Source of the DNA: an uncultured Nitrososphaerota archaeon
Lineage (GTDB): Archaea; Thermoproteota; Nitrososphaeria; Nitrososphaerales; CADDZS01
DNA: 64,000 bases
Direction of reading: 5' to 3'
Assembly (NCBI GenBank): GCA_963799845.1
Contig: CAWCYI010000004.1
Span: 480,001 to 544,000 of the forward strand
The notes under the pieces were generated by a model. That model was given only the letters and a program-made list of their open reading frames with translations, was not told the origin of the DNA and did not search any database. The position numbers were made by a program, and so were the translations under genes. Below are positions 6,038 to 61,337 of this stretch, piece by piece. Position 1 is the first letter of the stretch. Each line of letters opens with the position of its first letter.

Positions 6038-7983
6038 TCAGGATTTTCTTTCGTACCTACGGAATATTTCTTGCAATCGAGGATCTGTCCTAGCTTTTGT
6101 TGCCATTGGCGAATACTTCAGGACTGAAATGGAAATCGTGTGATTCTCACCCGCCCTCCTCATTGCTTCAAAGAAATTATCGAGGTCTCCGAGAGCGCAG
6201 TAAATCAACCCAATGCCATTGATTGCCACGAAACCCTCCTCAGAAGATTTCTGAAGAACCTTGATCATTTGGATTGCTTTTTCTCGCTGGCCTTCGACGG
6301 CAGCCAGATACCCCTCCCAAAAATCATTTTCCTGATTAGCTGGATTTAGCTTTCGCAGAGTCTGTATTATGCTCCGGGCTTTCTCGTAATCTTCTTTGTA
6401 GATGTAGTAATCCATCATGCTGTCATAGGTCATGTATGGAGCAAACTTCAGTGCAGTTTCCCAAATTTCCAGTGCCTCAGATTCCCTGCCCGACCAAAAA
6501 TACTCGTCCCCGAGGCTTGTCATATTCCATGGCTCGAGTGGATCGAGCTGGTAGGCTTTCTCCCTCAGCCTCACAGATTCGTCGAGATCCCCTCCAACCA
6601 TCATGACACCCGCGAGGTTGGAGTAGGCGTCCGCTAGGTTTGGGTTGATTTCGATTGCCCGTCGGGCCTCCTTCTCGGAAGCGTTCATGTTGTCCTCCAT
6701 CTGCTCAACTGTCGAGAGCGCCGAATGTGCCTCGGCTAGCATATCGTTGATTGCAAGCGCCTTTCGAAGTAATGCTCTGGAGTTATCGATCGCCTGTTGG
6801 AAAGGAATATGGGCGTACATTGCGAGAGAATAATAGCATCCCGCCTGCCCCACATACGCTCTGGCAAACTTTGGATCTCTCTGGATCGCCTTCTCAAACA
6901 GATTGAGAGCATCCCTCAAGGCACTTTCAGCCGTTTCGTGCGATAATTGCTTCGCTTGGAGAAAATACGTGTAAGCTACAATATCTTCAGTGTCCTTTTC
7001 TTCATGCGAAACAGGTCGCACATTCAGACCGAGGCTGGTTGCGATCGATCCAGTCACGTTCTGGGCTATGTCGTCCTGAATCGCGAATATGTCGTCCAGA
7101 TCTTTATCATATCTCGAAGACCACAGGCGACTTTCAGATTTTACATCGATGAGAAAGACAGTGGCTCGGATCTTGTTTCCGACCTTTCTGACGCTTCCTT
7201 CGATGACGGTTCCGACCTGGAGCTCCCTCCCTATTTCCGAAATCTTCTTGTCTTTGTTTTTGTAGCTCATCGAAGACGTTCGCGCGATCACTTCGAGCGG
7301 TTTCACCTGCGACAGCCGATCAATCAGCTCCTCAGTAAGACCGTCCGCGAGGTACCCGTCGTTTGCGTCCGGGCTCATGTTTGTGAACGGTAAAACTGCG
7401 ATTCGTCTTCCTGTGTCGTGATCTAAGGACTGTGAACCATCCCGGTTCCAGGGCATCACCACTTTGTAGACTTCAATCGACTGGCTGATATTCTTCAATG
7501 ATACATTCCCCATGCTCTCGATTGGTACCCGGATCTTGTTTAGAATGAGATCGTAGACCTGGCGAGTCAGACAGATGCCATCGACCTCCGCAAGTTGTTG
7601 AATCCTCGACGCTATGTTAACGGCGTCTCCAAAGACATCGCCCCCCTTGTGAACGATATCTCCAACATGAATGCCGATTCGAAGTCGGATCTTCCATTCA
7701 TCCGCCGATGAGAGATTGTAGTCATGAAGAAACTCTTGAATCTCCATTGCACACTGCGTCGTGTCGAGAGCGCTTTCAAATTCGACGAGAAAAGAGTCTC
7801 CAATCGTTTTGATTTCCCTACCTCTTTGCTTCTGGAAAAACGGCCTCATGAGTTTGTTGTGTCTTTCAAGCACCCTGAGTGCCTGATCTTCGTCTGACTG
7901 GGCGAGAGCGGTATATCCCACAATATCCGTAAACATTATGCAAGCAAGAGATCTTCGGCTCGCACCGAGATCGGATCACTCAT
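6038..7983 (-). CDS. Class III adenylate cyclase - TolB_N-like - TPR protein (possible 5' frameshift)
   Basis: [26 protein letters not shown] (metal Asps, ATP-specifying K/D, catalytic N/R); RIAVLPF domain; TPRs. ORF track starts at 7936, but in-frame RRSLACI continues upstream and the ATG at 7983 is one base out of frame. Confidence 0.9.
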
Positions 7984-8361
7984 TGGCTTCCTAATATCAA
8001 AGAGACTAATCTTTATGATTAATCTCCGCACCGATTCATTGTTGTAACAATGGTAGAGGACGTTAGAGAGTTGGGAACAATAGTTCTATGCTTTTTACGC
8101 AATCTTGTAGAGAATGACTAATGAAGAAAGGTGCCACAGATCTCGCGGGAAAAGGGTTGGCAAACTTATAGAATTTGTCCTGGTCACGTCTGGGCGACGA
8201 GCACATGTTGAATCGTGTTTTTTTGGCTTCGGCGAAAGATCTCCTTTCATTTTGCCAAATCTTTACAAATAGGCTCCGGATTCTTCTCGAAAAATAAGCC
8301 TCTACAGATTCTATCTGGATTATAATTGGACGCAGGAATGGAACTTAACGATTGGGTGAAG

Positions 8362-8476
8362 CGCCCAGGCCGGGATTTGAACCCGGGTCGCGAGAGTGAC
8401 ACTTGAGGCTACCGATATAGCAGTCTCACATACTAACCTATTTTTACGACCGCGAACGTCTCTATACTACCTGGGC
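8362..8476 (-). tRNA. tRNA-Asp(GTC) with two non-canonical introns (~15/16: 8442-8461; 32/33: 8402-8422)
   Basis: Acceptor GCCCAGG/CCTGGGC, T-arm CCGGG-TTCAAAT-CCCGG, anticodon arm TGAGA-CT-GTC-AC-TCTCG after intron removal; BHB-like junctions. Confidence 0.9.
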
Positions 8477-9470: not shown

Positions 9471-9580
9471 GGGCCTCTAGCTCAGCCAGGTAGAGCACTG
9501 GTGTTTATCGCGACCCAAAGTTGCGTAGACTGGTGAGACTTTTAATCCAGGGGTCTGGGGTCCGAATCCCCAGAGGCCCG
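9471..9580 (+). tRNA. tRNA-Lys(TTT) with 36-nt intron at 30/31 (9502-9537)
   Basis: GGGCCTC/GAGGCCC acceptor, GCTC/GAGC D-stem, CTGGA-CT-TTT-AA-TCCAG after splicing; intron hairpin and CACT/GGTG central helix; T-loop TCCGAAT. Confidence 0.92.
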
Positions 9581-9581
9581 C

Positions 9582-11385: not shown

Positions 11386-12331
11386 TTGAAAATTGTAGTT
11401 ATGGGCAGCGGGGGTCTTGGTGGATACTTCGGCTTCCGTCTCGCGCGTGCTGGCAATGAGGTTCATTTCATAGCACGTGGAGAGCGCCTCGACGCGATGC
11501 GCAAAAACGGGTTGCGTTTGATCACCAGCGATGAAGATTCCACTATTCAGGTTAAGGCATCCGAGAACCCCAAAGATGCTGGAGCTGCCGAACTCGTCTT
11601 ATTCTGCGTCAAAACCTATGACACAATCAGCGCAACAAAATCGATTTTGCCCATTTTGGAACGCAGCAGCACCGTTCTTACTCTTCAAAACGGCATCGAA
11701 AATTTCGATCAGATTCTCGGATGTAGTTGGGACGGATCGAGTTGTTCCCGGGACTGCTCTTATAGGAAGTGAGGTTCAGGCTCCCGGCGTAATACATGTA
11801 ATGACTCAGATAAGAAAAGTCGTATTCGGAGAAATTACCGGACAAAAGACTGCAAGGGCTGAAAGAATTAATGATGTGTTCAGATCAGCCGGTATTGACT
11901 CGGAAATCACGAGCGAAATTTCCAAACTTCTCTGGCAAAAGATGGTATGGTTTTGTGGTTTCGCCGGAATGTGTTCTATCATTCGGTTGCCTGTGGGAAA
12001 ACTCATGTCTTACCCCGAAACCCGGGAAATGTTCAAACAGATCATGGAAGAAGTCGATGAAGTGGCAAAAGCCAAAGGGGTTGATGTCGGACGCGATTAT
12101 ATTCAGAATCGAATAGATTTCGCAGATCATTTGGAAAAGAATGGAACACCTTCGATGATGCGTGATCTCTTGGCAGGACGAAAGCTCGAACTCGACGCTC
12201 TAAACGGGACTGTGATTAGAATGGGAAAGGAACAAGGGATTGCGACGCCGATGAACTGGGCAGTTTACAGTGCACTGAAACCGTACGTGACGCCCCGCGT
12301 AGCTTCTGTTGGCGGAATAGGAGAGGACTGA
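11386..12331 (+). pseudogene. panE: 2-dehydropantoate 2-reductase, frameshifted near 11714
   Basis: GSGGLGGYFG, CVKTYD, LQNG in one frame; LWQK, PSMMRD, ELDALNG in the next; extra base at GATTC 11712-11716. Confidence 0.88.
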
Positions 12332-12441: not shown

Positions 12442-14787
12442 TTGGACGACCCTCAATCCTCCGCATCTCCCACTGGCGAGCAAGCAGCTGTTAGTCTAGT
12501 TCGCGAATTACACAAGATCGAACTTTCAAATTATCGAGTCGTCGGCGGAATTGTAAGATACGACGAGTCCGCGAGAAATATTCTCAAGGATACAAAGCAG
12601 CGGATAGTCACAAGTCTAACTTCACAGACTCGAGGCCGAGACAACTACCTCATCTGGGCACCACCGGGCAGCGGCAAAAGTTTCTTTGTTCAGGAGATAG
12701 CAAAATCTCTCGGCGATAAAATAGACTACACTGAACTGAACCTAGCGCAGCTGGATGAGCAGAAGTTCAGAAGCGAACTTTCTAAGATCGAGAAATCCAA
12801 TAAGCCCCGCTTGTGCTTCATGGACGAAGTAGACTCCAAATCGTCTGAAGCGTGGCCGTACGAAGCTCTCCTCCCATATCTTGAACCGCCTGATAGGAAC
12901 ACCATCAGGACATGCTTCATCCTTGCTGGCAGTAGTGGTAATTCCCTTTCGGAGATGAAGGAGAGGATTGCCAAACGTCCAAAGGGAGTTGATCTCTTGA
13001 GTCGAATACCGGCTCGCAATGAATCAGCTATTCCGGGATTAGCTTTGGGCGACAGGATCCTTGTCGCATCAACCCAATTCTTGCGAGCTTCAAGCGAAAA
13101 GGGACGGCAGACCGATGAAGTCGAAAAGCTGGTGCTCTACTATATCGCTCTTAATCCAAAATTGAACAGCGCACGTCAAATCCGAGACCTTGCAATTCAT
13201 TGTATCGAACGCATGCCCAGAGGCGAAGAAAGGATCAAGTTCGATTATCTTTTCGATGCCGGAGACTCTGAGAACAAGGAATTTTGGAACACTGCGGGGA
13301 CGCTGAGAAACGAATTTGTCAACACGTTTGTAAGATTAGAAGACGATCAAGCTGTTTTCAAAGGCTCAAGCCCACAGCAAGGGATTTCGAGATTTGATGA
13401 GAAACGTGTGTTCGAAACGCCCCTAGAGAAAAACCGTATCGCAGTTCTGCCGTTTGCCAACATCAGTCCAGATCCCAAAGACGAGTATTTTGCGGACGGG
13501 ATGACTGAGGAAATAATCTCAACGCTCTCAAAAATACGTGGACTGAAAGTCATCTCCCGTACTTCAGTCTTGAGGTACAAACAAACTAACAAGAGTCTCT
13601 CAGAAATCGCAAGAGAACTGAATGTTGGCGCTATACTGGAAGGGAGTGTCAGGAAGGCGGCAGATGAGTTGCGAATTACAGCGCAGTTGATCGACGTGGA
13701 TAATGACGAGCATCTGTGGTCTCAAGATTATGACAGAAAATTCGAGAATGTGTTTTCACTGCAGAAAGAGATCGCGCAAAAAGTCGCTGATTCTCTCCAG
13801 ATTACAATTCTATCCAAAGAGAGCAAGGAGTTAGGAAAGAAACCAACCCAGAATATGGAAGCATACAGTCTTTACTTGAAAGGTCGCTCTCACCGGCACC
13901 GATGGAATCTTGATTCTTTCAAAAGAACAATAGATTATTGTGAGCAGGCTATTCAAAAAGACCCAAATTACGCCCAAGCCTACGCTGAGATTGCCAATTG
14001 TTACTCCATCATTGGTGTCAGAGAACTGCTCCCATCGAATGAGGCTTTCGCAGGCCGAGAAGTTTGCTGAAAAGGCAATCCAATTGGATCCTTCCCTTCC
14101 GGAATCTTATCTCGCACGCGGTCTGGTTCTGCTTTTACACAAATGGGATTTCCGACGTGCGGAAATAGAAATCAGAGGATCTCTTGAATTTAATCCTAGC
14201 CTGGTTGATGGTCATTTATATCTCGCGCAGCTGCTGGTGTGGAGCAGAAGATTTGGCGAAGCCGTTTTGGAAAGCAAACGCGCTTTGGAACTGGATCCGA
14301 TGTCAGCATGGACATGCTCATGGGCAGGCGAGATGCTTCTGTTTTCTCACCAAATTGACGAAGCTATAGAATTGTCGAGAAATGCCATCGAACTAGATCC
14401 GAAGTCGGCTTTGGCGCGACACAATTTGGGCCTTGCTTATGTTATGAAAGGAATGATCGAGAAAGGAATTTCTGAACTCAAAAAGCTAGAAGCCACGCCT
14501 TTCTCGCCTACGCCTATGGCAAAGCTGGAAAGATCAATGAAGTGAAGAACATTCTCGCAGACCTGTTCAGGATGAGGGAAAAAGGCTACAGGTCAGAAGT
14601 AGCAATTGCTGCAGCCTACTTGGGTTTAGGTGAAAAGGACAAGTCCATAGAGTGGTTAGAGAGGGCTTACGAGCAGCACGTGGGTCATTTTCCTGATGTG
14701 AACGCTCAGCCCATTTTCGACGACCTTCGCTCTGATCCAAGGTTTCAGGCTCTGATGAAGAAGATTGGATTTCCAGACGCAGTCTGA
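12442..14787 (+). pseudogene. AAA+ ATPase - TolB_N-like - TPR protein, copy 1 (two frame breaks in TPR part)
   Basis: Walker A APPGSGKS, Walker B CFMDEVD, DLLSRI, SARQIR; RIAVLPF; TPRs over ORFs 12442-14070, 13940-14545, 14542-14787. Confidence 0.85.
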
Positions 14788-16045: not shown

Positions 16046-16834
16046 TCATACATCTGCCTGGCCGACGACTTGCCGCATCGATTCCACGTACTTGTAATGG
16101 TCCTTTCTTTTGAGCTTCTCCGCCGCCGCTTCGTCGAGGAATGCAGTGACCCTTGGATGGAGTTGGAGCGCGCTCGCGGTTATTTCCGAAGTAATGGGCC
16201 CTTCCAAAGCCAGCCTTACCGCATCCGACTTTTCCACGCCGCTAGCGAGGAGAACGATGTGGCGTGACTCGAGGATCGTCCCGACCCCCATCGTGATCGC
16301 AAATCGCGGCACCTCGTCGAGACTCCTGAAGAACCTCGCGTTGTCGGAAATCGTTTCTTGGGCTAGCGTCTTGAGCCTCGTTCTTGATCCGAGCGATGAA
16401 CCGGGCTCGTTGAATGCGATGTGCCCGTCGCGCCCGATGCCAAGCAGCTGGATGTCTATCCCGCCGGCTTCTCTTATGGAGGCTTCGTACTCGGAGCAGG
16501 ACGCCTCGATGTCCTTTACGAGTCCCCCTGGGATGTGCACGTTTTTGGGATCGATGTTCACATGCCTGAGCAGATTTTCGTCCATGAAGTAACGGTAGCT
16601 CTGGGGATGGTCCGGCGCGAGGCCGTAGTACTCATCTAGGTTGAAAGTGCGCACTCCTGCAAAGTCGAGGCCTTCTTCCCTATGCATTCGCGCGAGCTCG
16701 CGGTATATCCCCAGCGGTGTGCTGCCGGTAGCGAGGCCGAGGACGGAGTCGGGCTTCCGTCTTAATTGGGCTGCGATGAGCTTAGCCGCAGCGTTACTCA
16801 TTTCAAAGTAGCTCGGCGCGATCCGGACTCTCAA
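16046..16834 (-). CDS. nagB: Glucosamine-6-phosphate deaminase
   Basis: LGLATGSTP, FNLDEY, QSYRYFM, GIGRDGHIAFNEP, TMGVGTI, ASALQLH. Confidence 0.96.
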   Translation of the reverse strand: MRVRIAPSYFEMSNAAAKLIAAQLRRKPDSVLGLATGSTPLGIYRELARMHREEGLDFAGVRTFNLDEYYGLAPDHPQSYRYFMDENLLRHVNIDPKNVHIPGGLVKDIEASCSEYEASIREAGGIDIQLLGIGRDGHIAFNEPGSSLGSRTRLKTLAQETISDNARFFRSLDEVPRFAITMGVGTILESRHIVLLASGVEKSDAVRLALEGPITSEITASALQLHPRVTAFLDEAAAEKLKRKDHYKYVESMRQVVGQADV

Positions 16835-17001
16835 ATTCGATCTCTTAATCCAGTGTGTCGTGCGGATTAAACTTTATCCGACTACATTGGAAATCTACCG
16901 ATTCTCTTCTCCTCTCTATCCGTGCGTACCAATAAATAGACACGCACGCAGAGAAAAAAAATCAAAAAAAGATAGAAGGAGAGAGTAAAAACTCCTCCTA
17001 C

Positions 17002-17270
17002 CTAGAGCGCGAAGATCTTTGCTTGAATTTCATTCATGTCTGGCGCACCTTCAGCAGTGAGCTCAAATCTCCCCTTCTTACCATTCAGCCACGAAAGTCT
17101 TGGGGAGGTTGTCATGAAGGTAATTTCGCCCTCACCCTTGTTCGTAGTCGGGCCAGTCATCCTTCCAGTTCCATGACCGATTCCCAGGATTATATCTCCT
17201 TCGTTTGTTGAGTCCACGAACTTCGTCTCCCAATCATACGCACCGCTCGTCTTGAAATTGAATAGGGAGA
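17002..17270 (-). pseudogene. 5'-truncated beta-rich hypothetical protein
   Basis: Coding-like C-terminus (GEITFMTTSPRLSWLNGK); the upstream part of the ORF runs into a (CG)n tract and AT-rich sequence. Confidence 0.45.
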
Positions 17271-17571
17271 TTGTACGCGCGCGCGCTTTTGCCAGTGACA
17301 AATATTTAACGCAAGTGATTTTCAAGGTTTCTTTTTTCCCGAAAAGTGCGGAATTCAACTTCTGCTCTCTGAAGGATCAATTGTTAGTTTTGGTGGAATG
17401 GGAACGATGACGTTGAGTCCATAAGGCGGGGTTTGGACTCTGGTAACATTATAGTGTGTTGTACAGAGATGTTTTACTTCGAGTGTTGAGTGCTAAAGTT
17501 TTGCCTGTTGGTTCTAAATTACCCAATGATTCATGGAATCAACAATAGAAAACACGGCAGCTAATTCGATA

Positions 17572-29763: not shown

Positions 29764-32146
29764 TCATTCTGCATCGGGAAAACCAATTTTCTTCAGCAAT
29801 GCCTGAAACCTTGGATCTGACCGAAAGTCCTCGAAAGCAGGATCGCTATTGATACTCGGAAGAGAGCTAAGATGATACTCATAAGCTCTCTCCAGCCACT
29901 CCATTGCCTTGTCCTTTTCACCTAAGCTCACGTAAACTCCAGCAATAGCTGCTTCTGACCTGTAGCCTTGTTCCTTCATTCTCAGCAAATCGGCAAGAAT
30001 GTTCTTCGCTTCATCGATTTTTCCAGCTTTTGCGTACGCCCAAGCAAGATTGCTTATTTTTGTCACATCTTCCCACCAGACATTTCTATGCCTATTTTGA
30101 TTTCAGAAATTCCTTCCTCAATCATTCCCTTCATGATGTATGCACAGCCCAGAACGTCATGCGCTAAAGCAGAATTCGGGTCTAGCTCGATAGCATTTCT
30201 GAACAAAACTATTGCTTCGTCAATTCGGCGAGATTGCAAAAGATAGCCACCTGCCATTGTGCACGTCCAAGCTGACAGCGGATCTCAGCTCCAAAGCGCG
30301 GTGGCATTCCAAAATGGCTTCGTCAAATCTCCTGCTAAACACGAGAACCTCTGCGAGATCGATGTGACCATCCACCGAGCTGGGATTAAGTTCGAGCGCT
30401 CGTCTCAATTCGATTTCAGCAGCTCGAAGATCCCATTTTTCTGCAAGTAAGAGCCATCCTAGCGCAAGGTGAGATTCAGGAAGGGACGGATCCAATTGGG
30501 TTGCTTTATCAGCAAACATCTTCGCTTGTGGCAGGGCTTCATTCGATGGCAGAAATTCAAACCAACTAAAGGCAGTGTAACATTTGGCCATCACCGAATA
30601 GGCTTGAGCGTAGTTCGGATCTTTCTGAATTGCTTGTTCGCAGTAAAATATCGTTCTTTTGAGGGAATCAAAAGTCAGTCGATGCATGTAAGATCGGCCC
30701 TTCAAGTATAGAGTATAAGCTTCCAGGTTCAGCGTTGGTCTCTTTCCTAATTCTTTGCTCTGCTTCGCGAGAATTGTAATCTGAAGAGAATCAGCGACCT
30801 TTTGGGCGATCTCCGCTTGCAGTGAAAACACGTTCTCGCATTTTCTATTATAATCTTGAGACCACAAATGCTCGTCGTTTTCCACATCAATTAGTTGCGC
30901 CGTAATTCGCAGATCGTCGCCTGCTTTCCTGACACTTCCTTCCAATACCGCCCCAACATTCAGTTCCTTGGCGATTTCGGAGAGATGCTTGTTCGTTTGC
31001 TTATAGCCCAAAACAGAAGTACGGGAGATGACTCTTAGCCCTCGAATTTTAGATAACGTAGAAATTAGTTCCTCGGTCATGCCATCCGCAAAGTACTCGT
31101 CCTTAGGATCAGGGCTGATATTTGCGAAGGGCAGCACGGCGATACGATTTTTTCCGTAGGTTGTTTCTTTGGTTGCAAGCTTTTCGTCAATTCTAGAATT
31201 CTCCAGATTCATAGTTGAGGGTCTGAAAACGATTTGATCATCCTCTAATCTTACAAACGTGTTGACAAACTCGTTTCTCAATTGACCTGTTCTGGTCCAA
31301 AACTCCTTGTTTTCGAGATCGCCCGCATCGAAAAGATAATCGAACTTTATTCTCTCTTCTCCCTTGGGCATGCGCTCGATACATCGAACAGCTCAGCTGT
31401 CGAATTTGACGGGCACTTTTCAGTCGGGGATTCGAAGCTACGTAGTAAAGCACCAATTTTTCGACTTCATCGATACGCCGTTCATGCTCAACTGCTGCAT
31501 TGAGAAATTGGGTGGAGACTACGAGAAGTCGATCCCCCAGTCCTAAACCCTCAATCACGAACTCGTTCCCTGGTGGAATCCTACTCAGAAGATCAGTACC
31601 TTTAGGGCGTTTTGTAATATTTTCATTCATACCTGCTAGAGAATTTCCAGAACTTCCTGCCAGAACGAAGCATGTTCGGACAGTTTTTCTATTTGCAGGT
31701 GGCTCAAGTGAAGGTAGAAGGGCCTCATACGGCCATGATTCACCTGGTTTGGAGTCCACTTCATCAATGAAGCACAGACGAGGTTTATCCAATTTTTCTA
31801 TTTCAAATAAAGCTCTGCGGAAATCTTGCTCACTCATCTGAGCCAAATTAAGCTCCCTGTAGAGAATATGGTCGCCCATAGACCTCGCAATTTCTTGGAT
31901 GAAAAATGACTTCCCGCTTCCAGGTGGTGCCCAAATCAGATAATTGTCGCATCCGAAGGGCTGCGAACTTAGACTGGAAACAATCCTTTGTTTTGTATCT
32001 TTCATAGAATTTCTGGCGGGCTCGTCGTACCGTACGATTCCTCCGACAACTCGAAACTTTGGAAGTTCAATGCTGTGGAGCTCGCGTACGAGACGAATAG
32101 CGTCTTGTTCGGAAGAAAGAGATGCAGAGGATTTCGATTCTTCCAA
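29764..32146 (-). pseudogene. AAA+ ATPase - TolB_N-like - TPR protein, copy 3 (three 1-nt frameshifts)
   Basis: Four consecutive ORFs colinear with copy 2; breaks near 31394, 30286 and 30070. Confidence 0.87.
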
Positions 32147-32280
32147 TCCAATGAACGCGACTTGATCCCGAAAACTAAGCTGGGAACTATTATGATTTTG
32201 CTTACACTAGATAGGGCAATCTAGATCGTCTGAAATTTTCAGCGCTTGAGTTGTGAACTCTAGCAGGTCTTCGGACTCGA

Positions 32281-32745
32281 CTATGAATTGACTACTTCGG
32301 AAGCATTCTTGGCAAATTGATAACCTGTTGTATCGTCCTTTTCTCGCCACAGAACGTTGATGATCTTCCACTTGCCGTTGAACTTAGCCAGCCCTATGTA
32401 ATCAATACCCCAATTCGCTTCAGTCCTCACCATCGCCATGTCCTTGTATCGATCAAGAATGATCATATCTTCCTGGCGTTGAGCCACAGGGGTTCGCTTG
32501 ACATGGGCTTTCCTATCACCCCAACCGCCCTGAGTGTCGCGAATCAGCTTCGAAGCGGATAACTCGTACATTTTTGTACGGCCTGTTTTGGGATCCGTCC
32601 AAACCATACGCTTCACAAGTCTGGGGTGCAACGCACGCTTCATGCGGGAACCTTCCCAAGTGTAACATGAGTCGACGTAGTCGAGAACCGTCTTTCGGAT
32701 TGCCTCGGCTTCTGGATCGGAAGCAGAAGGAGTGAGGGCCATCAA
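32281..32745 (-). CDS. NTF2-like (Lumazine_bd_2-type) protein
   Basis: AIRKTVLDY, ALHPRLVKR, DYIGLAKFNGKWKIINVLW. Confidence 0.85.
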   Translation of the reverse strand: MMALTPSASDPEAEAIRKTVLDYVDSCYTWEGSRMKRALHPRLVKRMVWTDPKTGRTKMYELSASKLIRDTQGGWGDRKAHVKRTPVAQRQEDMIILDRYKDMAMVRTEANWGIDYIGLAKFNGKWKIINVLWREKDDTTGYQFAKNASEVVNS

Positions 32746-43798: not shown

Positions 43799-44432
43799 TT
43801 AGGATTCATCTGAGATCTCCTCGAAAGTTGGATCTGGAATTAAGTCAAATGCTCGTTTAGCCAAGATCAACCATACGCAACGAATGGACCTCCTATGATC
43901 GCAATTGGAAGTGAGTACCGCCATGGAAGAAAGGCACATGGCGGCTCAAACAAAATAGATGCAAATGTGAAGATCGATAAGAACATGAGCCCAAAGCGAT
44001 TTTGTTGCATCTTTTGTGATAGAATGAAAAGTGAATTTGGTTATGATTTTTTTCTTAAATCTAGCACGGGCCGATAATGCCACCGAAGACGGGATTAGAG
44101 CCGTAACAAGATTGTAGTCCCGAATTAAGATCGTAAGTTACACCTAAACCAAAAGCATAGCATGTTAGGGAATTGTACCAGCTAATTGCGATGTCAGCTT
44201 GACCGTTAGGACAGGGAATGTGGATTGTTTGAACATCCACAGGAGCAAGGAAAAAGAAACCAAGAATGAGCACAAGTATAAGAACAATGAACAGAGATTT
44301 TCTCCGCAAATTGTTCTGTTTTTTGAGATTTCCCTACTTATGAGCTAAGCTGTGTATATCCCAAATATGTCTCTCCTCTCGAAAACGAACGTTCCAATCA
44401 TCTTGATCGCCATTGGCTAAATCATCTGTCAA
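43799..44432 (-). pseudogene. Interrupted paralog of 40559-40840
   Basis: 3' part 43799-43995 (FTFASILFEPP...AKRAFDLIPDP), 5' part 44360-44432 (DDW); shared upstream GAATCAGTCCTyGATGACT. Confidence 0.7.
44061..44309 (-). CDS. Small secreted/anchored Cys-containing protein
   Basis: Signal-like N-terminus, four Cys. Confidence 0.6.
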   Translation of the reverse strand: MRRKSLFIVLILVLILGFFFLAPVDVQTIHIPCPNGQADIAISWYNSLTCYAFGLGVTYDLNSGLQSCYGSNPVFGGIIGPC

Positions 44433-44488
44433 ATCAAGAATCAGTCCTCGATGACTTGGTAACTAATTAGGAACTTGCAAGTTTCCAT

Positions 44489-45137
44489 CTATTTCCGAAC
44501 CAAAGTCAAACAGAAATGTTCGTCCTTCTTCGCCAGTTGCTTAACCGTACATTTCTTGAATAATCCGACCAACTCGGCTTTGAAGAAATGGTGATGCGGA
44601 ATGTTTGCCTCTATTCCCTTGGACCATATCAGAGTGCCAGGCTCAACTTCAATAGCGTACGGGTTTTGGATTTTCTCGGATTTCGACCAGCTGAGGTACC
44701 TCAACGTAAATGTATCCACCCTTTCTCGTCACCCTCTCGATTTCGGCAGCGATTTTTCTGATCTTGTCAATGAAAGCGTGGTGGAAGACCCTCATTACTA
44801 AGACACCGTCAAAAAATGAATTGGTGTATGGAAGTGGGACATCATTCATGTCCCAAATTTTTAGTTTTGCACCAAGCCGTTCCTTATACAATTCTACTCT
44901 AGTACGGCTTACAGCCGTTCGTGACCAGTCAAAACCATAAACATGGAATCCCGACTTGGCAAAATAGACTGTATGTCTGCCCGTACCGCAACCAAAGTCG
45001 AGTACTCTCAGAGTTCTTCTTCTCCGCTTCTTCTTCATCAGACTTGTTGATAGGGAGACCACGGCTTCCTCTATCCGTCTGTCTGGATACCAGTCGAGCC
45101 AAGTGTACTTGATGACAGGTCGGGGTTTATGGGGCAT
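44489..45137 (-). pseudogene. Class I SAM methyltransferase, frameshifted at 44693
   Basis: VLDFGCGTGRH, GFDWS, FDGV; C-terminus in ORF 44489-44719. Confidence 0.85.
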
Positions 45138-45910
45138 CTTTAGCGATCTACGACCAAATGGACAATTTGAATCAGGATAGGTAACTCTCTAAGTGGTGAA
45201 CGATATGTCTTTTCCTTCTTATTGAACCGCTGAATGGGATAATGATCAAGGGCGGCGAGTACCTCGAAAGGACTCAGAAGATTGACACGATTGTCTTTGA
45301 CAAAGTTTGGGAGACTATCCCACTTACGTTTAGCTTCTTTCAATCAGCTGTAGTTTCTTCCCTGATACTCGCTCAGACATTCCATCGAGCAAAGCAAACC
45401 TTGTTCACGGATTTCTAGATTCGTACCTGAGATTCAGGTGTTCGAATTATAGAAGAAATTTATCCTTGTTCGTCGGAAAACGATGTCGTGCTTTTTCTTC
45501 TAACCACTGACGGCTCTATTCGTTCGTTTCATTGCATGATAACTTCTTTGGAAGCTCTGGATCCGTTCAATGTTGGAGTCTTGTTTGCCGAAGAGTTATC
45601 GTGATTAGGCAATTTCGCAAGTGCCTTAATACTGAGTAATCTAGTAGCGAAGTTCGCACTCTTAAAAGCCCGAAAATTTGTTGTGTTTTGGGAAGGGGTG
45701 TAGTCGCTGGCGAATGGGTTATACCATCTTCAGCGCTCACTCTTTCCCGCCTCATATTGCTCATGAACTGTCTGAAAGTTTCGAGGGAAGCTTTGCTTTG
45801 GTCTATCGGATTTGGGCAATAACTGGGGAAAAACGATTGTACATTTTGCGTTAGAACTCTCCAATAAACGTCAAAGGTTATGACATGAGCAGCAGTGTAC
45901 AACATGTGCA

Positions 45911-46218
45911 ATGAGTTCCGTTGAACATACCTACAGAGAAGTGGCCAAGTTTGTCTCTCTTGCTCTCTCTGTCACTCCCAATACCAAAACTGAAGGTTAT
46001 CTGGAAGAAGCTTGGAAACTGATTGAGACGCTTCCAGATAAGAATAAGCGTGGTTTTCGGTACACGTACCCTGAGATCTACGAAGCGATAACCGTCGGAA
46101 AAGGCCGACCTTAATAGAAGCGCTCAGGGATGAGCTTTCAGAGTTAAGTCTGACTACGAAGGAAGACGTTGAATCCATACAAAAAGATGTAGAGGAAATT
46201 GAAGATCAGAAGAAATGA
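45911..46218 (+). pseudogene. Helical hypothetical protein, frameshifted near 46090
   Basis: ORF 45911-46114 continues (LIEALRDELSEL...) in another frame to TGA 46218. Confidence 0.4.
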
Positions 46219-46365
46219 GTCAGTTCTTATGAATACTTTGCAGACAACTTTGAATTGTTCGTATCTTTCCTACCGATTATCTACGGAGCATCTTCTCAAA
46301 CAGAAGAATAACAGCCGTCAACAGAAGGAAGAATTTGTAATTTAGCAAGTCATACGAATCTGCCC

Positions 46366-48164: not shown

Positions 48165-48396
48165 ATTAGAGGATTGCGACGTGGTATTATCTTTGCAAGA
48201 GCCGTGACCAAGCCGACGCCTGTCGTCATGAAATCATGGGTCTTCTATTGTTACCTGCCCATCTAACCTTAGGTGGTTTGTACTCCCAATGAAGTAAGAC
48301 CGTGATATAGTAGCAGTAACTTGTTTTGAAATTATCTTACGCACGCTCGAATCGCTCATTAATCACAGGTTGTATCTTAATCAGCACACCGCGCGA

Positions 48397-49113
48397 TCAA
48401 GAGGCGGGCGCGACCAATGATCGCACCTTTGGGTTCTTAACCAGAAGCCACACCATCATTGATACCTCTCCAAGCGCTCCCAGTGCATCTGTAACGAGAG
48501 AAACAACATTCCCGTAAGGTAGCGACAGTAATGGGACAAGACTTTCTCCAAGGTAGGCAAAACATGCGATGACGAGAAAGACACCCAGAATGCGTGGAAA
48601 GAAACCTGATCTGTATACTAGAACCCCGAATGGGAAAAGCCAGAGGCCCCAAAATATATTGACAACATCAAGCCCATCGCCATGCAGATTGAGGAACACC
48701 ATGACCAGGGCGTCCAGCTGACTTTTTTGAAATACGGACAAGAAGTTAGCACTGCTCAATAGTTCCAGAGCAGCAAACTCGTTCAACACGTTCAGGAATG
48801 AGATGGGAACGGCGATCAGCACGAAGGCTACCATCAGTGAAGCATATCCCTTGTTGACCCCATTGAGTAAGCGATACAGAGCCTTGGCACATAAGAAAAG
48901 CACTATCGCGGAGATCAGTTCACCAATGATGCCGATGCGGAAAAGCGTCTCGGAAGCCAAGATGTTGCTGGCCGTCTCGGTTACGTTTCCAGGCACGACC
49001 AAAGTAGGGAGAATAAAGATGATGTTGAAGCCTCCTGCAAGGCTGGCTAACAAATACCAGATTCCTGCGATTCTTCCAGTGTTCTTGGTTGGGTAAATCT
49101 GCTTCTCTAGCAA
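48397..49113 (-). CDS. DUF4386-family membrane protein
   Basis: RIAGIWYL, TASNILA.E.LFR, FWGLWLFPFG.LVYRSGFFPRILG. Confidence 0.85.
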   Translation of the reverse strand: MLEKQIYPTKNTGRIAGIWYLLASLAGGFNIIFILPTLVVPGNVTETASNILASETLFRIGIIGELISAIVLFLCAKALYRLLNGVNKGYASLMVAFVLIAVPISFLNVLNEFAALELLSSANFLSVFQKSQLDALVMVFLNLHGDGLDVVNIFWGLWLFPFGVLVYRSGFFPRILGVFLVIACFAYLGESLVPLLSLPYGNVVSLVTDALGALGEVSMMVWLLVKNPKVRSLVAPAS

Positions 49114-49149
49114 TTTAGGTCATCGAAGAAGCGAAGAACCGAAGCTTGA

Positions 49150-49214
49150 GATAAAAGACTCACGTGTTAACGACAGGTGTTGATGACACGTTTCCCTTAT
49201 GTTGTAAATCACGA
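49150..49214. promoter_or_regulatory. Conserved divergent promoter/operator module, copy A
   Basis: GATAAAAGA-n-CACGTG-n-AGGTGTTG-n-ACGTTTCCCTT; aligns with 59652-59716 and 60262-60325. Confidence 0.7.
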
Positions 49215-49238
49215 TGATTTATTTCTAGGTCTTGAGAT

Positions 49239-49949
49239 GTGAATTCAACCTCTGAAGATCCCAGCCGACGGCAAGACATACAATCCAGCCTCAAGTCAAT
49301 TGTTGAAAGTTCCGACAAGTGGTTAGGGCGTCTCAGTAGACGAGAATCGCGGGTAAGACTCGCTAGTTCGTTCTTGACTGTGATCCTTGCCTGGGCGCTA
49401 ATTGGAGGGGTTTTCCTTGGGCTCATTGTAATTCAATTTGGGGCTTTTGGAGGTCTTTCCCACTTTTTTCAACAGCCCATTCTGGACGAATCAGTCGCGG
49501 CCACCGTATTTCTCGCGGGAGTGATCAGCGGCTTTGCAACCTTTTTCTTACTAAAGAGGAAGCACGAGGCACAATTGAAGGAGTTATCCTCCCTAATAGC
49601 AGAAATGAAAAAGGTCGAGGAAGATCAAAAGAGGGCTGCGAACGACGGGAACGGTGAAGTGGTCGCGGAAAACGCACTCTACTTGGCGGATAAGATGCTC
49701 ACGCTTCTTCCCGAAATGGTAAGGAAGAGAGGTCAGGATTCTCTATTATTCGGCGTAGTCGTGTTCATAGTCGCAGAAGTTGTCGGTAGGAATCTCGCAG
49801 TTGCAATCTTGGTTGGAGCGATTGTGTGGCTATACTTCAGATACGAGTTTAGCAGGACATATGAACAAGAGATGTCAAAGTTCGAAGAACAGAAGAGAGT
49901 CTTTGAGCAACGAAAGAAGGATTTCATGGAGACTATGGAGACTCTGTGA
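49239..49949 (+). CDS. Membrane protein, paralog of 60370-61056
   Basis: ~4 TM with coiled segments; clear similarity to 60370 ORF. Confidence 0.8.
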   Translation: MNSTSEDPSRRQDIQSSLKSIVESSDKWLGRLSRRESRVRLASSFLTVILAWALIGGVFLGLIVIQFGAFGGLSHFFQQPILDESVAATVFLAGVISGFATFFLLKRKHEAQLKELSSLIAEMKKVEEDQKRAANDGNGEVVAENALYLADKMLTLLPEMVRKRGQDSLLFGVVVFIVAEVVGRNLAVAILVGAIVWLYFRYEFSRTYEQEMSKFEEQKRVFEQRKKDFMETMETL

Positions 49950-49958
49950 TTCTAGGGA

Positions 49959-50231
49959 TTGGAAAAGCCAGACGTCTATGTGGTAGCTCGCTTTCTTGAG
50001 ATCATGTACAGGAACGGTTCGTCGATGAAAAAGACGAATATTCAGATGCTCGTGGGTATCCGCTACCCGCGCTTCATTGAGTACCTCGAATGGTTATTGA
50101 AACACGAGTTTGTTGCAGAGAGTCTTGATGAAGAAAAAGCGAAGATAATAATCTTGACGCCGAAGGGGATTGATTCATACCACAGGCTTGTAGCTTTGAT
50201 AAAAGAAACTTTCGACGTAGAAAAGATATGA
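49959..50231 (+). CDS. Archaeal winged-helix transcription regulator
   Basis: KKTNIQMLVGI.Y..F.EYL..L, LTPKG. Confidence 0.85.
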   Translation: MEKPDVYVVARFLEIMYRNGSSMKKTNIQMLVGIRYPRFIEYLEWLLKHEFVAESLDEEKAKIIILTPKGIDSYHRLVALIKETFDVEKI

Positions 50232-50532
50232 CGCTTATTTGATGATGTTCAATTATCCTAAGGTGTAGGACAAAATAAGTGCTAAAATAAGCGAGATGTG
50301 GATCTCTCGTAAGAGATTCCTTTGGTCTATAGTGGATCTGAGAAGAAACACGAAGGTTTGCAGATGGCACGCAGGTCTCACCTGCCGAGCGAATCATCTG
50401 ACTTGTGTCAGATTAAGAAAGAGATCACGAGATGATCGCCGAATGTCCGAGTGGACAGTCTAACGGAGAAAGCAAATAAGGAACCAGGCCAAAGACAAGC
50501 TTAGAATTACGAGCATATCCATTAAATTCTAG
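50232..50532 (+). ncRNA. Candidate structured non-coding RNA (unknown family) adjacent to attR
   Basis: About ten stems incl. long-range CTTTGGTCT/AGGCCAAAG and possible pseudoknot TAGTGG/CCATTA; no plausible + strand ORF. Confidence 0.55.
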
Positions 50533-50553
50533 AGTACCCGCACCCTATACGGA

Positions 50554-50573
50554 TCCGAATCCCCAGAGGCCCG
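50554..50573 (+). repeat. attR: exact copy of tRNA-Lys 3' 20 nt
   Basis: TCCGAATCCCCAGAGGCCCG identical to 9561-9580. Confidence 0.9.
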
Positions 50574-50607
50574 TTTTACAACGACAGAAGATTTTGATCT
50601 CTTGTCC

Positions 50608-50745
50608 ATGATGTCTAAGGAAGAATGCGAAGAGAAAGCAGAATCTGCAAACAAACAGAAGCTTTCAGAATCAGAAATAAGACGAATCGTAGAAGCTACT
50701 CTAACAGCTCCTGCTCAGGCCCTTCAACATGCCTCCAATTTTTAG
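50608..50745 (+). CDS. 45-aa hypothetical peptide
   Basis: ATG...TAG, MMSKEECEEKAESANKQKLSESEIRRIVE... Confidence 0.3.
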   Translation: MMSKEECEEKAESANKQKLSESEIRRIVEATLTAPAQALQHASNF

Positions 50746-50907
50746 TGGAATATTGGTAAAGATGTGGCACAAACGACCGAATTATTATTATCCACGATCG
50801 CGGACGAGAAAAAAGGACGTGGGCCTATTTGGTGACTGACATTAAATTGGTTATGCAAAACCGGTTCGCAGGGTTCTGCCTACGCGTCCGCGGAAGGTCA
50901 TCATCTA

Positions 50908-52884
50908 ATGTTTGAGCAAGGCGAGCGACAGCTTGTAGCCATTATGTTTACCGACATTGTGGGATATACTGCCCTAACCCAGCGCAATGAGTCGCTTGCA
51001 TTACAGCTCGTCGAACGACACTGGAAACTTGTCCGCCCTGTCTTGACGAGATATGGAGGAAGAGAAATCAAGACCATTGGAGACGCTTTTCTGATCGAAT
51101 TTGGAAGCGCTCTTCAAGCGACCGAGTGTGCATTTGAAATCCAAAAGGCCCTTCGCGACTACAACGAGATCGCCGGCAGCGCCTTAGAGCAAATTAGCGT
51201 GAGAATCGGGATTCACATCGGGGATGTGGTGCGTGCGAAAGGTGACGTATTTGGAGACGCGGTGAACATTGCTTCGAGAATTGAACCGCTCGCGAAGGGC
51301 GGCGGGATCTGTATTTCGGGGCAAGTTTTTGACCAAGTTAGAAACAAAATTCCCTATCGCGCAACCCTGCTGGAGAAAGCCCAGCTGAAGAACGTGGCTC
51401 TCCCCGTCGAGGTGTACAAATTGGATCTTCCGTGGGAAAAGGCGAGTGATCCTTCTCCTTCTGCACCGAGCCTTCTTCCAGCAGACCGCATTGCGGTCTT
51501 GCCATTTGTGAACATTAGTCCGGATCCCAACGACGAGTATTTCGCAGATGGGTTGACCGAAGAATTGATCGCAAACCTATCCCTGGTGCGCGGATTGAAG
51601 ATCATTGCGCGCACGTCGGTAATGAACTACAAGAAAGAAAAGAAGAGCGTCGCCGTGATCGGAAAAGAGCTTGGCGTAGGTACAGTGGTAGAAGGAAGCA
51701 TCAGGAAGGTTGCAAACCGGATCAGAGTAACGGTACAGGTAATCGATGTGAATACTGAGGAACACCTATGGGCTTCAAACTACGATCGCAGTCTCGATGA
51801 CATTTTCGCTGTGCAGAGTGACATTGCCGCGAGAGTGGCTGAATCTTTGCCGCAGGCTATGATACCGAAATCGAGACTCCCAGAAAATCGTGAGGAATTG
51901 CAGGACACCGATAATGTAAGCGCGTACATGTACTTTCTTCACGGTAGACAGTCGATGTACAGTGCAGATGCGATCTCTTTGAGGAAATCGTTGGAGCTTT
52001 TTGATAACGCGACTCGATTAGATCCCTACTTTGCACGCGCGTATGTTGGCAAGGCACGCGGTTTCATATCTTTGGGAACAGAGAACGTCCTTCCATGGAA
52101 GCAATCGATTGAGGCGGCCGAAGAGGCAGTAGATAGAGCGTTGGCGATTAACCCCAATCTTTCCTCGGCTCATGCTATCCTATCAGAACTCGCGTACATG
52201 AGCGATGATCTCGAGAGGTGCGCCGCCGAAGCCAGGAAAGCGATCGAATTGAATCCCAACCTTGCAGACGCTTATTTTCAGTTGGGCGAATACTTGGCAC
52301 TGAAGGGAGACCTTAGCGAATACGTCAGCCAGCTGAAGACAGCTCATGAACTCGACCCACTGTCTCCCATGATAGTGCGCAGATTCGGGTATGCGCTTCT
52401 ATATGCAGGGCGGGGGGACGAAGCGAGGGATCACTGGTACAAAACTCTGCATCTTGATCCTTTCAATGCGTATAGAGGCCTCACAGATTATTTCATGATA
52501 AAGGGTGAATATGATCAGGCTGCGAAGATGGTAGGAGAACTCGAAAAACTCCAACCGCTCAGCTCATTCACATTGCTCAACATGGGTTTTTTGGCGGCGC
52601 TGCGCGGAGATCGAGAAAGGGCAGAGAGCGTGATCCGGACAATGAAGCAAAATTACCCCTCGGGATCAGTTGCTTCAGCCTTTGCTGGTTTGATCTATTT
52701 TGCCTTGGGAGACCTTGACAAGTTCTTTGTTCAGATGCAAGAATCATCCGCCAACAATACTCTACCCGCTCTGATCCTAATGCGATCTCCGCTTTTTGCA
52801 GGGGCAAGAAAGGATCCTCGAATGCTTCCCCTTTTTTCCAAATTAGGCATAACGATACCGTATCGGATCGAAAAGCTCGCTTAA
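50908..52884 (+). CDS. Class III adenylate cyclase - TolB_N-like - TPR protein
   Basis: [29 protein letters not shown]; RIAVLPF; TPRs. Confidence 0.93.
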
Positions 52885-52965
52885 GAATTGTGATTGTTTG
52901 GGATTATCGCTTGCCCGTTCCCAGTTCTGATCAATTTGACTGGAGGTTAGTACTCGCACTTATCA

Positions 52966-52988
52966 GGTGCGAATATCCAGAGGCCCGC
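52966..52988 (+). repeat. Degenerate second att copy of tRNA-Lys 3' end
   Basis: GGTGCGAATATCCAGAGGCCCGC vs GGTCCGAATCCCCAGAGGCCCGC (9559-9581): 20/23 identical. Confidence 0.7.
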
Positions 52989-59885: not shown

Positions 59886-60236
59886 TTAAGTGGTGACCGC
59901 ACTTTGCATCAATCGGCGATCATCTTCGGCGGCCTTCTGCTGCATCCAGCAATGGGGTTTATGCTCAAGCAACCCTCGTCCCTCTTTTCGATGATCTCTC
60001 ACGTCCATCGAAGTCACTATTATTGGCATTATCAAGGCGATCAACCCAGTTAAGGCGATCAAATAGTTAGATAACGAACCCACTATTTGCGCTATTCCGA
60101 AAATTAGTAGGAGAGTACCGATTATCCAAGAGTGAGAATATCTTCAGTGAAAAGAATGTGTCCTCGTTGAAATAATCCAAATAATTAGCGAGGAATAGTA
60201 GCCTACTGCTCCAATCACCCAAATCGAATAATTCAT
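59886..60236 (-). pseudogene. Membrane protein with in-frame TGA at 60144-60146
   Basis: ATG at 60236 is in frame with ORF 59886-60083; three hydrophobic segments. Confidence 0.5.
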
Positions 60237-60261
60237 TTCGGAAGAATGAACCGGAGATCAA

Positions 60262-60325
60262 GATAAAAGATCCGCGTGCCAGAGAGACGTATTGACAGCA
60301 CGTTTCCCTTAAGTGCAGATCAGGC
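60262..60325. promoter_or_regulatory. Conserved promoter/operator module, copy C
   Basis: GATAAAAGATCCGCGTG...ACGTATTG...CACGTTTCCCTTA. Confidence 0.7.
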
Positions 60326-60369
60326 AAATTATTTCCTGGATTAGACAACAGATCGGATGGTCTTGAGAT

Positions 60370-61056
60370 TTGGATTCAAATGAAGATCCTAAACGACGGC
60401 AAGAGATACAGTCCAGCCTGAAGTCAATTGTTGAAACTTCCGACAAATGGTTAGGGCGTCTCAAGAGGCGAGAATCACGGGCCAGGTTGGCAATTTCGTT
60501 CTTAACCATGGTCCTTGTATTTTTTGTTGCTGCAGCCTTTGTCCTGGGTTTTATCATAATCCGATATGGCTGGCCTTACCTCATCGCTCTTTTTCACAAT
60601 CCGAGTCAGGCTTACCCACTCGCGGGTTTCATATTTCTCGCGGGACTGATCAGCGGCGTTGGAACGTACTTTATACTAAAGAGGAAGCACGACCCGCAAT
60701 TGAGAGAGTTATCCTCACTAATAACCCAAATGAAAAAGATAGAGGAGGAGGAGACGAATGGTAAGAGTGCCGAAGGAATCACTGAAAGCGCTCTCTCCGT
60801 GGCAGATAAGATCCTGACGCTGCTTCCCGAACTAGTGAGGAAGAGAAATCAAGATTCTCTGCTTTTCGGAGCGGTCGCGATCGTAATCACTGCTACTCTC
60901 GGTGGAAATTTTGCAGTGGCCATCCTTGTCGGAATAATAGTGTGGCTATACTTCAGATACGAGACCCGGAAGACGTACGATCAGGAAATATCAAAGCTCG
61001 AAGAACAGAAGAGAGTCTTCGAGCAAAGAAAGAATGATTTCATAGAGACTCTGTGA
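60370..61056 (+). CDS. Membrane protein, paralog of 49239-49949
   Basis: Shared IQSSLKSIVE.SDKWLGRL and LLPE.VRKR.QDSLLFG. Confidence 0.8.
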   Translation: MDSNEDPKRRQEIQSSLKSIVETSDKWLGRLKRRESRARLAISFLTMVLVFFVAAAFVLGFIIIRYGWPYLIALFHNPSQAYPLAGFIFLAGLISGVGTYFILKRKHDPQLRELSSLITQMKKIEEEETNGKSAEGITESALSVADKILTLLPELVRKRNQDSLLFGAVAIVITATLGGNFAVAILVGIIVWLYFRYETRKTYDQEISKLEEQKRVFEQRKNDFIETL

Positions 61057-61337
61057 TTTTGGGATTGGAAAAGCCGGATCTTTACGTGGTAGCTCGTTTT
61101 CTTGACATCATGTACAGGAACGGTTCAGGGATGAAAAAAACAAATATTCAGATGCTTTTGGGCATCAACTACCCGCGCTTTATGGAGTACCTCGAGTGGT
61201 TATTGAAGCACGATCTTGTCGGTGAGAGTCTAGACGAAGAAAAAGTGGAGAGAATAATGTTGACGCCTAAGGGGATTGATTCGTACCATAGGTTGGTAGA
61301 TTGGATAAAGGAAACGTTAGATGGAGTAAAGATATGA
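61053..61337 (+). CDS. Archaeal winged-helix regulator, paralog of 49959-50231
   Basis: EKPDLYVVARFL, KKTNIQML, LTPKG. Confidence 0.85.
   Translation: MILGLEKPDLYVVARFLDIMYRNGSGMKKTNIQMLLGINYPRFMEYLEWLLKHDLVGESLDEEKVERIMLTPKGIDSYHRLVDWIKETLDGVKI

Follow-up and report, generated by a model that had tools for sequence, protein, structure and literature searches.

A palindrome-rich spacer beside a relic tRNA-Lys 3' end in a soil-type Nitrososphaerales genome

The attP arm regions of lambda-type elements comprise a few hundred non-coding bases beside the core, with short motifs in both orientations. Clustered, hairpin-forming inverted repeats downstream of a gene are a feature of small archaeal plasmid origins and of rolling-circle single-strand origins. 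To our knowledge, next to nothing has been described of such cis elements in the mobile DNA of thaumarchaea. On target sites, one published account (Krupovic et al. 2019, PMC6563490) reports that 39 of 68 thaumarchaeal integrated elements use a tRNA gene as target, in nearly every case at its 3' end, that the att sites are short (median of 17 bp) and that intron-bearing tRNAs are among the targets.

A 64-kb stretch of DNA (i.e. C4:480001-544000; hereafter the window, to whose numbering all coordinates without a contig name refer) was analysed from a genome of 4.6 Mb in 9 contigs with 87% completeness. The closest named relatives of one protein of this genome were found in metagenome-assembled genomes (MAGs) from soil and groundwater (best amino-acid identity of 76%), the titles of which name Nitrososphaerales, Nitrososphaeraceae or Thaumarchaeota, and the genome is treated as thaumarchaeal on that basis. 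The studied stretch (50232-50532) separates a winged-helix gene, from its stop codon onwards, from a tRNA-like fragment, and lies within a gene-free spacer of ~320 nt (50232-50550) that was non-coding in every test run. The explanation we favour, with about an even chance of being correct, is that this spacer is leftover lineage-specific DNA just within one border of an old, degraded insertion into tRNA-Lys, with palindromes that have no demonstrable function. The stretch is probably not a conserved structured RNA. The features on which the argument turns are as follows.

9471-9581, + strand: intact, intron-bearing tRNA-Lys(UUU) gene at the attL-side end of the interval (ARAGORN with introns allowed)
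9558-9580, + strand: first copy of the direct repeat, from the T-loop to the discriminator of tRNA-Lys, i.e. the att core (repeat search and genome-wide motif search)
49239-49949, + strand: gene for a 236-aa membrane protein, first in a two-gene cassette and a paralogue of 60381-61053 (DNA comparison)
49959-50231, + strand: gene for a 90-aa winged-helix protein, HTH_45-like (Pfam score of 25.1 bits, just below the cut-off of 25.5 bits)
50232-50294, no strand assigned: outer 9-bp stem CGCTTATTT/AAATAAGCG around TCCTA/TAGGA (pairing check; local z of -2.67)
50293-50440, no strand assigned: cluster of nine [CG]AGAT/ATCT[CG] 5-mers (motif occurrences)
50320-50495, + strand: predicted multiloop domain with closing stem CTTTGGTCT/AGGCCAAAG (minimum free energy of -55.2 kcal/mol, z of -3.21; RNALfold z of -3.42)
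50320-50495, + strand: hairpins within the multiloop, i.e. GCAGGT/ACCTGC, ATCTGAC/GTCAGAT, GATCA/TGATC and TGTCC/GGACA
50501-50532, no strand assigned: hairpin TTAGAATT/AATTCTAG of 8 bp with one G-U pair and a loop of 16 nt (pairing check)
50533-50550, + strand: arm starting AGTACCCGCACCCTATAC on the inner side of the core, common to four other att-like sites (five-site alignment)
50551-50573, + strand: second copy of the direct repeat, an attR-like relic of the tRNA-Lys 3' end that matches 9558-9580 at 22 of 23 positions
52946-52987, + strand: second, more decayed copy of arm plus core, 2.4 kb further on, 83% (repeat search and alignment)

A default run of ARAGORN detected no tRNA, while an intron-allowing run returned the tRNA-Lys(UUU) and, on the - strand (8361-8476), a tRNA-Asp(GUC) that is interrupted at position 29 by an intron of 47 nt. 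The last 23 nt of tRNA-Lys recur with a single mismatch 41 kb downstream of the intact gene, and the studied stretch ends ~20 nt before this copy, in agreement with the first-pass annotation, which had placed it just inside an attR. The term attR holds in so far as there is a real direct repeat of the tRNA-Lys 3' end; the site is, however, a relic and not that of a live element. Alignment identified an inner arm of ~20 nt that is common to five att-like sites in three genomes of the genus, i.e. 50533-50573, 52946-52987, a site on contig C6 of the same genome (C6:1746389-1746408, - strand), one in G003 (C203:8366-8393) and one in G001 (the G001 genome is unpublished and the other four sites stand without it). 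Similarity among these sites extends for only ~20 nt beyond the core, after which no relationship is left between the sequences. Copies of the tRNA-Lys 3' end in a decayed state were also present at 52946-52987, at C6:1746389-1746408 (- strand) and at C4:1453169-1453188, the first two of which have the arm (AGTAC...) as well. Together with 50533-50573, these copies suggest that there may have been repeated or tandem insertions at the tRNA-Lys target.

The tRNA-Lys contigs of G004, G006, G007, G009 and G010 were either short or had no downstream synteny with either flank, and so provide no empty site that confirms the boundaries. A split or giant-intron tRNA was rejected, with no tRNA-model hit at E ≤ 10 and no 5' half discernible by eye. 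An SSV-type split integrase across the core was likewise rejected: on the attL side a SprT-like ORF stops just before the core, and at attR only a 41-aa ORF crosses it. Several properties are common to this locus and the thaumarchaeal tRNA att sites of PMC6563490, i.e. a direct repeat that is the 3'-distal part of a tRNA, an intron-bearing target, a short core (23 nt versus a median of 17 bp) and repeated or tandem relics at one target. Judged from sequence, the att relic appears to be a further instance of the known pattern of tRNA-targeted integration in thaumarchaea.

The bounded 41-kb interval (C4:489581-530550) contained none of the genome's five matches to PF00589. No mobile-element hallmarks were detected by Pfam searches of 48 ORFs and PHROGs searches of 18 ORFs of the interval, and no Rep, primase or relaxase was recognisable among the 48 ORFs scanned, all of at least 90 aa. 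The genes of the interval include those for a glucokinase, a 6-phosphogluconolactonase-type protein, a split ketopantoate reductase and a UvrD helicase, as well as transporters, AAA/TPR proteins and methyltransferases. Unlike thaumarchaeal elements, the 41 kb thus combine a lack of integrase or hallmark genes with housekeeping-type content, and no empty site was found in a relative, indicating a relic rather than a definable element. Our reading of the site is that an old insertion left it behind in a tRNA-linked region that is variable.

Other irregularities were observed in the interval. The ketopantoate reductase gene and two AAA/TPR genes are each split into two overlapping ORFs (11386-12331; 12442-14545; 30220-32146), a sign either that genes of the interval are decaying or that the assembly has indel errors. 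A segment of ~1.9 kb (44392-46220) encoding a methyltransferase and small ORFs is duplicated elsewhere in the same genome (C4:1445504-1447408) with 88-92% identity, and ~0.9 kb of it (45409-46248) is ~94% identical to a region of the same-genus genome G003 (C203 6387-7340). Within this segment, a 67-aa ORF (45911-46114) matches the first part of a 116-aa ORF of G003 (C203 6960-7310), after which the frame is lost, either because the ORF is a pseudogene with a frameshift or because of an assembly indel.

The two-gene cassette that precedes the stretch was compared with its paralogue and with related loci. Positions 49228-50231 have 75% DNA identity to 60359-61337, and the similarity ends exactly at the stop codon at 50231. 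No Pfam family passed its cut-off for the 236-aa membrane protein. Homologues of the winged-helix gene were present in 7 of 13 family genomes and at 17 loci in named genomes. A different sequence was found downstream of this gene in each of the nine family loci read, and neither these nine nor the 17 named-genome loci had a downstream sequence similar to the stretch. The possibility that the stretch derives from the promoter or 5' end of the operon, as a third copy now decayed, was rejected (p = 0.08-0.99).

A counterpart of the region was identified in G003, contig C203 of which is collinear with the window at three anchors.

G003 6387-7340: equivalent to window 45409-46248, with 94% identity
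G003 7870-7916: equivalent to window 48315-48361
G003 8366-8393: equivalent to window 50539-50566

The second and third anchors are 2.2 kb apart in the window, as compared to 450 nt with a 114-aa ORF in G003; the region is, by this comparison, replaceable. The 114-aa ORF is a small zinc-ribbon gene with a conserved C-terminal cysteine/histidine module. This module recurs in G002 (65% identity, E of 4e-16) and in one further protein (E of 8.5e-9) among 1.84 billion representatives, indicating that the ORF is a real but rare gene. The loci for this rare small protein are G003:C203 8016-8360 and G002:C90 1432-1656 (- strand), its C-terminal module reads LKRxGIT.S...C..HGK..C.IC.RP in the three members among the 1.84 billion representatives, and in G003 only ~5 nt separate the end of the gene from the arm that flanks the att-like core.

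A global DNA alignment of 50232-50538 with G003 8040-8365 gave z values of 2.1-3.3 (p = 0.003-0.033) across four scoring schemes and p ≤ 0.013 when compared to real-sequence controls. Local DNA alignment of the stretch with the G003 gene gave p = 0.25-0.30. At the protein level, the best single frame gave p = 0.10-0.14 and the three-frame sum p = 0.02-0.045. A three-member HMM of the zinc-ribbon family produced no hit in the stretch at E ≤ 100 in a search of 46054 six-frame genome chunks. There is, on these comparisons, a weak hint that the stretch may be the eroded remains of the zinc-ribbon gene found at the same position in G003.

Our favoured explanation of the spacer as leftover DNA would proceed as follows. 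A tyrosine-recombinase-type element would once have recombined with tRNA-Lys from the T-loop to the 3' end, leaving behind the 23-nt direct repeat (9558-9580, 50551-50573) and the ~20-nt element-side arm that are now seen. The element would later have lost its integrase and been overwritten, one such change presumably being a segmental copy of the chromosomal membrane-protein and winged-helix cassette that now ends exactly at 50231. The remainder between the cassette and the arm would then be orphan sequence, which may include the eroded zinc-ribbon gene of the sister species (the link is weak). Its hairpins are strand-symmetric DNA palindromes, with several produced by one 5-mer, [CG]AGAT, in alternating orientation. 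If this ordinary reading is true, then the locus adds to the decayed insertions at tRNA genes of soil thaumarchaea; it is useful as the marker of a variable region and as an example of short palindromes that look like an RNA fold. Greater importance would attach to it only if the array of palindromes and [CG]AGAT copies were an RNA or a site with a working role in recombination, replication or regulation.

Some of the observations run counter to this leftover-DNA explanation. Neutral DNA does not predict either the hairpin enrichment (p = 0.0003) or the [CG]AGAT cluster, the densest of the 64 kb. Additionally, the + strand domain with exact boundaries beats 200 of 200 shuffles. The absence of homologues, for its part, rests on incomplete genomes. 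None of the relatives yielded an empty tRNA-Lys site that would prove the insertion.

All 11 stems that had been named in the first-pass annotation were located and found to be fully paired where it had placed them, seven by Watson-Crick pairs only and four with a single G-U pair. Perfect hairpins were then counted, for which stems had to be 5 bp or longer and loops 3-8 nt. Eight were present in 50232-50532, six of them non-overlapping, as compared to an expectation of 1.39 ± 1.08 non-overlapping hairpins in 3000 dinucleotide shuffles (p = 0.0003 for the observed six). A count of six was reached in 4 of 1274 real 301-nt windows of the 64 kb, which represent two loci, the studied one and 31951-32301; this second locus is part of an AAA-ATPase ORF, at its 5' end. 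When 464 kb of the contig were scanned, the maximum count was seven, which occurred in 5 of 15461 180-nt windows (three loci, including the studied one). A shared architecture among the other hairpin-dense loci of the contig was rejected, these being a mix of coding and intergenic sequence.

Several of these pairings derive from repeated short motifs. Nine copies of [CG]AGAT occur between 50293 and 50433, of which the first seven alternate in orientation, and these 5-mers generate four of the stems (i.e. GAGAT/ATCTC, ATCTCT/AGAGAT, ATCTG/CAGAT and ATCTGAC/GTCAGAT). The peak of 8 copies per 140 nt was the highest of 6386 such windows in the 64 kb (mean of 0.81; 5 at the next locus), a result that counts as a lead only because the motif was picked post hoc in a region already seen. 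The outer stem (50232/50285) is composed of copies of an AAATAAG motif, and AATAAG/CTTATT occurs 4 times versus 0.12 expected. The 9-bp long-range stem and the 6-bp pseudoknot are, by our own estimate made without a tool, at about chance expectation for 300 nt (i.e. approximately one 9-mer pairing with at most one G-U among ~45,000 position pairs). The real signal is an excess of short, perfect, strand-symmetric palindromes and not an RNA-specific fold.

A signal of this type could belong to a cis-acting DNA element, a possibility that we consider rather unlikely. The stretch would then be an extended arm bound by a recombination or winged-helix protein, or an origin of replication or transfer, and the palindromes and [CG]AGAT copies would function as double-stranded binding sites or as ssDNA hairpins. 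In line with such a role, the perfect Watson-Crick palindromes are equally strong on both strands (z of -3.50 and -3.15 with DNA parameters), a single 5-mer occurs nine times, alternating in the first seven copies and at the highest density in the window, and the whole adjoins the conserved arm and core on one side and a DNA-binding-type gene, which it directly follows, on the other. However, no integrase, Rep or relaxase was recognisable in the 41 kb, and conservation among the related att-like sites ends ~20 nt from the core. The palindromes are neither alike nor evenly spaced, which is not what an array for one dimeric protein looks like; relatives of the winged-helix gene had unrelated downstream sequences in the nine loci read, and the motif was chosen post hoc.

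Comparison with the described cis elements follows the same lines. Like lambda-type attP arms, the locus has a non-coding stretch beside a core with repeated motifs in both orientations, but there is no recombinase and only ~20 nt by the core are conserved among the related sites. Like plasmid and rolling-circle origins, it has a cluster of hairpin-forming inverted repeats 3' of a gene on a mobile element, but the interval is without a recognisable replication protein and the stretch has no sequence relative. The first-pass annotation had offered an ssDNA origin or recombination-associated structure as one of its options. This idea fits the DNA-level symmetry better than an RNA does; it lacks a partner gene because no integrase or Rep was found in the bounded 41 kb.

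The folding energy of the stretch was assessed against shuffled sequences. With RNA parameters, the 329-nt stretch had a z of -1.74 on the + strand, where 4 of 100 shuffles were as good, and of -2.52 on the - strand, where 2 of 100 were as good. DNA parameters gave z values of -3.50 (+) and -3.15 (-), with 0 of 100 shuffles as good on each strand. Among 1419 fixed 180-nt windows, the best rank was 63 on the + strand and 38 on the - strand. The narrower domain 50318-50496, the boundaries of which were chosen so that the long-range stem closes, had a z of -3.21 on the + strand (0 of 200 shuffles as good) and of -1.95 on the - strand (8 of 200).

RNALfold was used to place these values against the local background. 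Loci with z ≤ -3 numbered 66 (non-overlapping) on the + strand of the window and 62 on the - strand, a background of approximately one locus per kilobase per strand. The multiloop domain (z of -3.42) ranked 37 of 66 on the + strand, where most of the other loci were within coding sequence. On the - strand, two loci overlapped the stretch (50220-50308, z of -3.90; 50385-50573, z of -3.60). On either strand, no local fold of the window was stronger than that at 16833-17031 (RNALfold z of -4.89 on the + strand and -5.41 on the - strand), between two - strand ORFs (16046-16834 and 17002-17358) and without an Rfam match at gathering thresholds.

The description of the stretch as a highly structured RNA is not supported by these data. 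The dinucleotide-shuffle check that had been proposed for it gave a non-significant z for the full 329 nt, and the z of the domain was at the background of the window. The proposed preference for the + strand does not extend to the whole stretch, since the - strand folds equally well or better and DNA parameters give like scores; G-U pairs in two of the stems are possible on the + strand only. The centroid structure retained the closing stem and four hairpins.

Rfam searches of the whole window at gathering thresholds yielded 0 matches, in line with the first-pass annotation, in which no RNA family was recognised. At E ≤ 10, a search of 49900-50950 returned only three chance-level hits (E of 3.2-6.8), i.e. 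snoU61, a C/D box family (15.9 bits versus a gathering score of 55), Clostridiales-2 (13.2 bits versus 58.6) and isrF (8.9 bits versus 40). The likeness to these families consists of a TGATGA box-like hexamer and chance matches, and the stretch is not a member of any of them.

Homologues were sought by several methods. BLAST searches with 50232-50575 returned only the query itself and the tRNA-derived 23-mer from the same genome and, from 60 relatives (including 12 family genomes of 58-96% completeness), only the att core with or without the arm, or short matches with weak E-values. A covariance model of the 179-nt domain, which was built from a single sequence and hence has low power, matched 1 of 101 genomes, i.e. 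its own and none of 100 relatives. Metagenome pattern scans with a two-hairpin anchor and with arm plus core each gave 0 hits. None of 59 loci examined resembled the stretch, apart from a 38-nt BLAST match in G011 that falls within a 391-aa coding gene and is attributed to chance. The genome itself, the 60 and 100 relatives, the 59 loci and the two metagenome scans thus supplied no homologue for the covariation test suggested in the first-pass annotation. Six public runs contained the locus, none of them on record as RNA. Contigs from four public runs were identical to the region over 50178-50363 and 50458-50608, with no variants listed in 50232-50550.

An RNA encoded by the element, as put forward in the first-pass annotation, fares poorly with z-scores at the window background and a signal that consists of strand-symmetric perfect palindromes. 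In its most specific form, this would be an orphan, element-borne ncRNA from the + strand, in which 50320-50328 would pair with 50486-50494 and close a multiloop of five hairpins; we regard it as unlikely. The exact domain 50318-50496 does fold better on the + strand than on the - strand (z of -3.21 versus -1.95), its closing stem and four hairpins persist in the centroid, and the G-U pairs of two stems exist on the + strand only. A putative promoter, the A/T-rich TAAAATAA, lies ~27-37 nt upstream of 50320, and a T4 run after the tRNA fragment could act as a terminator. Set against these points are the rank of the domain (37 of 66 on the + strand of the window), the folding of the whole stretch at least equally well on the - strand, and the three chance-level hits as the sole yield from Rfam at E ≤ 10. 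The searches returned no sequence or structural homologue and hence no covariation evidence of any kind. Should the G003 interval be homologous, then by our reading of the alignment only 4 bp (TCCT/AGGA) of the first small hairpin survive there, which argues against a conserved fold.

A broader proposal is that a thaumarchaeal tRNA-Lys island carries at its end, in this spacer, a cis element or small RNA that is functional and restricted to the lineage, which we consider quite improbable even when its two versions are taken jointly. In one version, the [CG]AGAT inverted repeats would be bound by the adjacent winged-helix protein, or extruded during recombination or replication; in the other, the product would be an RNA of ~175 nt with paired ends. 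Neither version has a described relative. It is highly improbable that the stretch is a 3' untranslated tail or termination zone of the membrane-protein and winged-helix operon with hairpins that stabilise or end the transcript: it does follow immediately on the last gene of the operon, which is on the same strand, and the base next to the stop codon already opens the first stem, but a tail of this kind is missing from the paralogous operon (60381-61337) and from the relatives in the nine loci read, 320 nt would be a long sequence for such a role, and archaeal termination is generally attributed to T-tracts, not hairpins.

The regions upstream of the two paralogous operons (49100-49245 and 60230-60385) were found to have blocks in common, i.e. 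AGATAAAAGA..CGTG, CACGTTTCCCTTA and TTGAGAT.TG.ATT. The second of these regions is also AGAT-rich, with 7 copies in 140 nt. The common blocks may form a candidate operator for the winged-helix protein.
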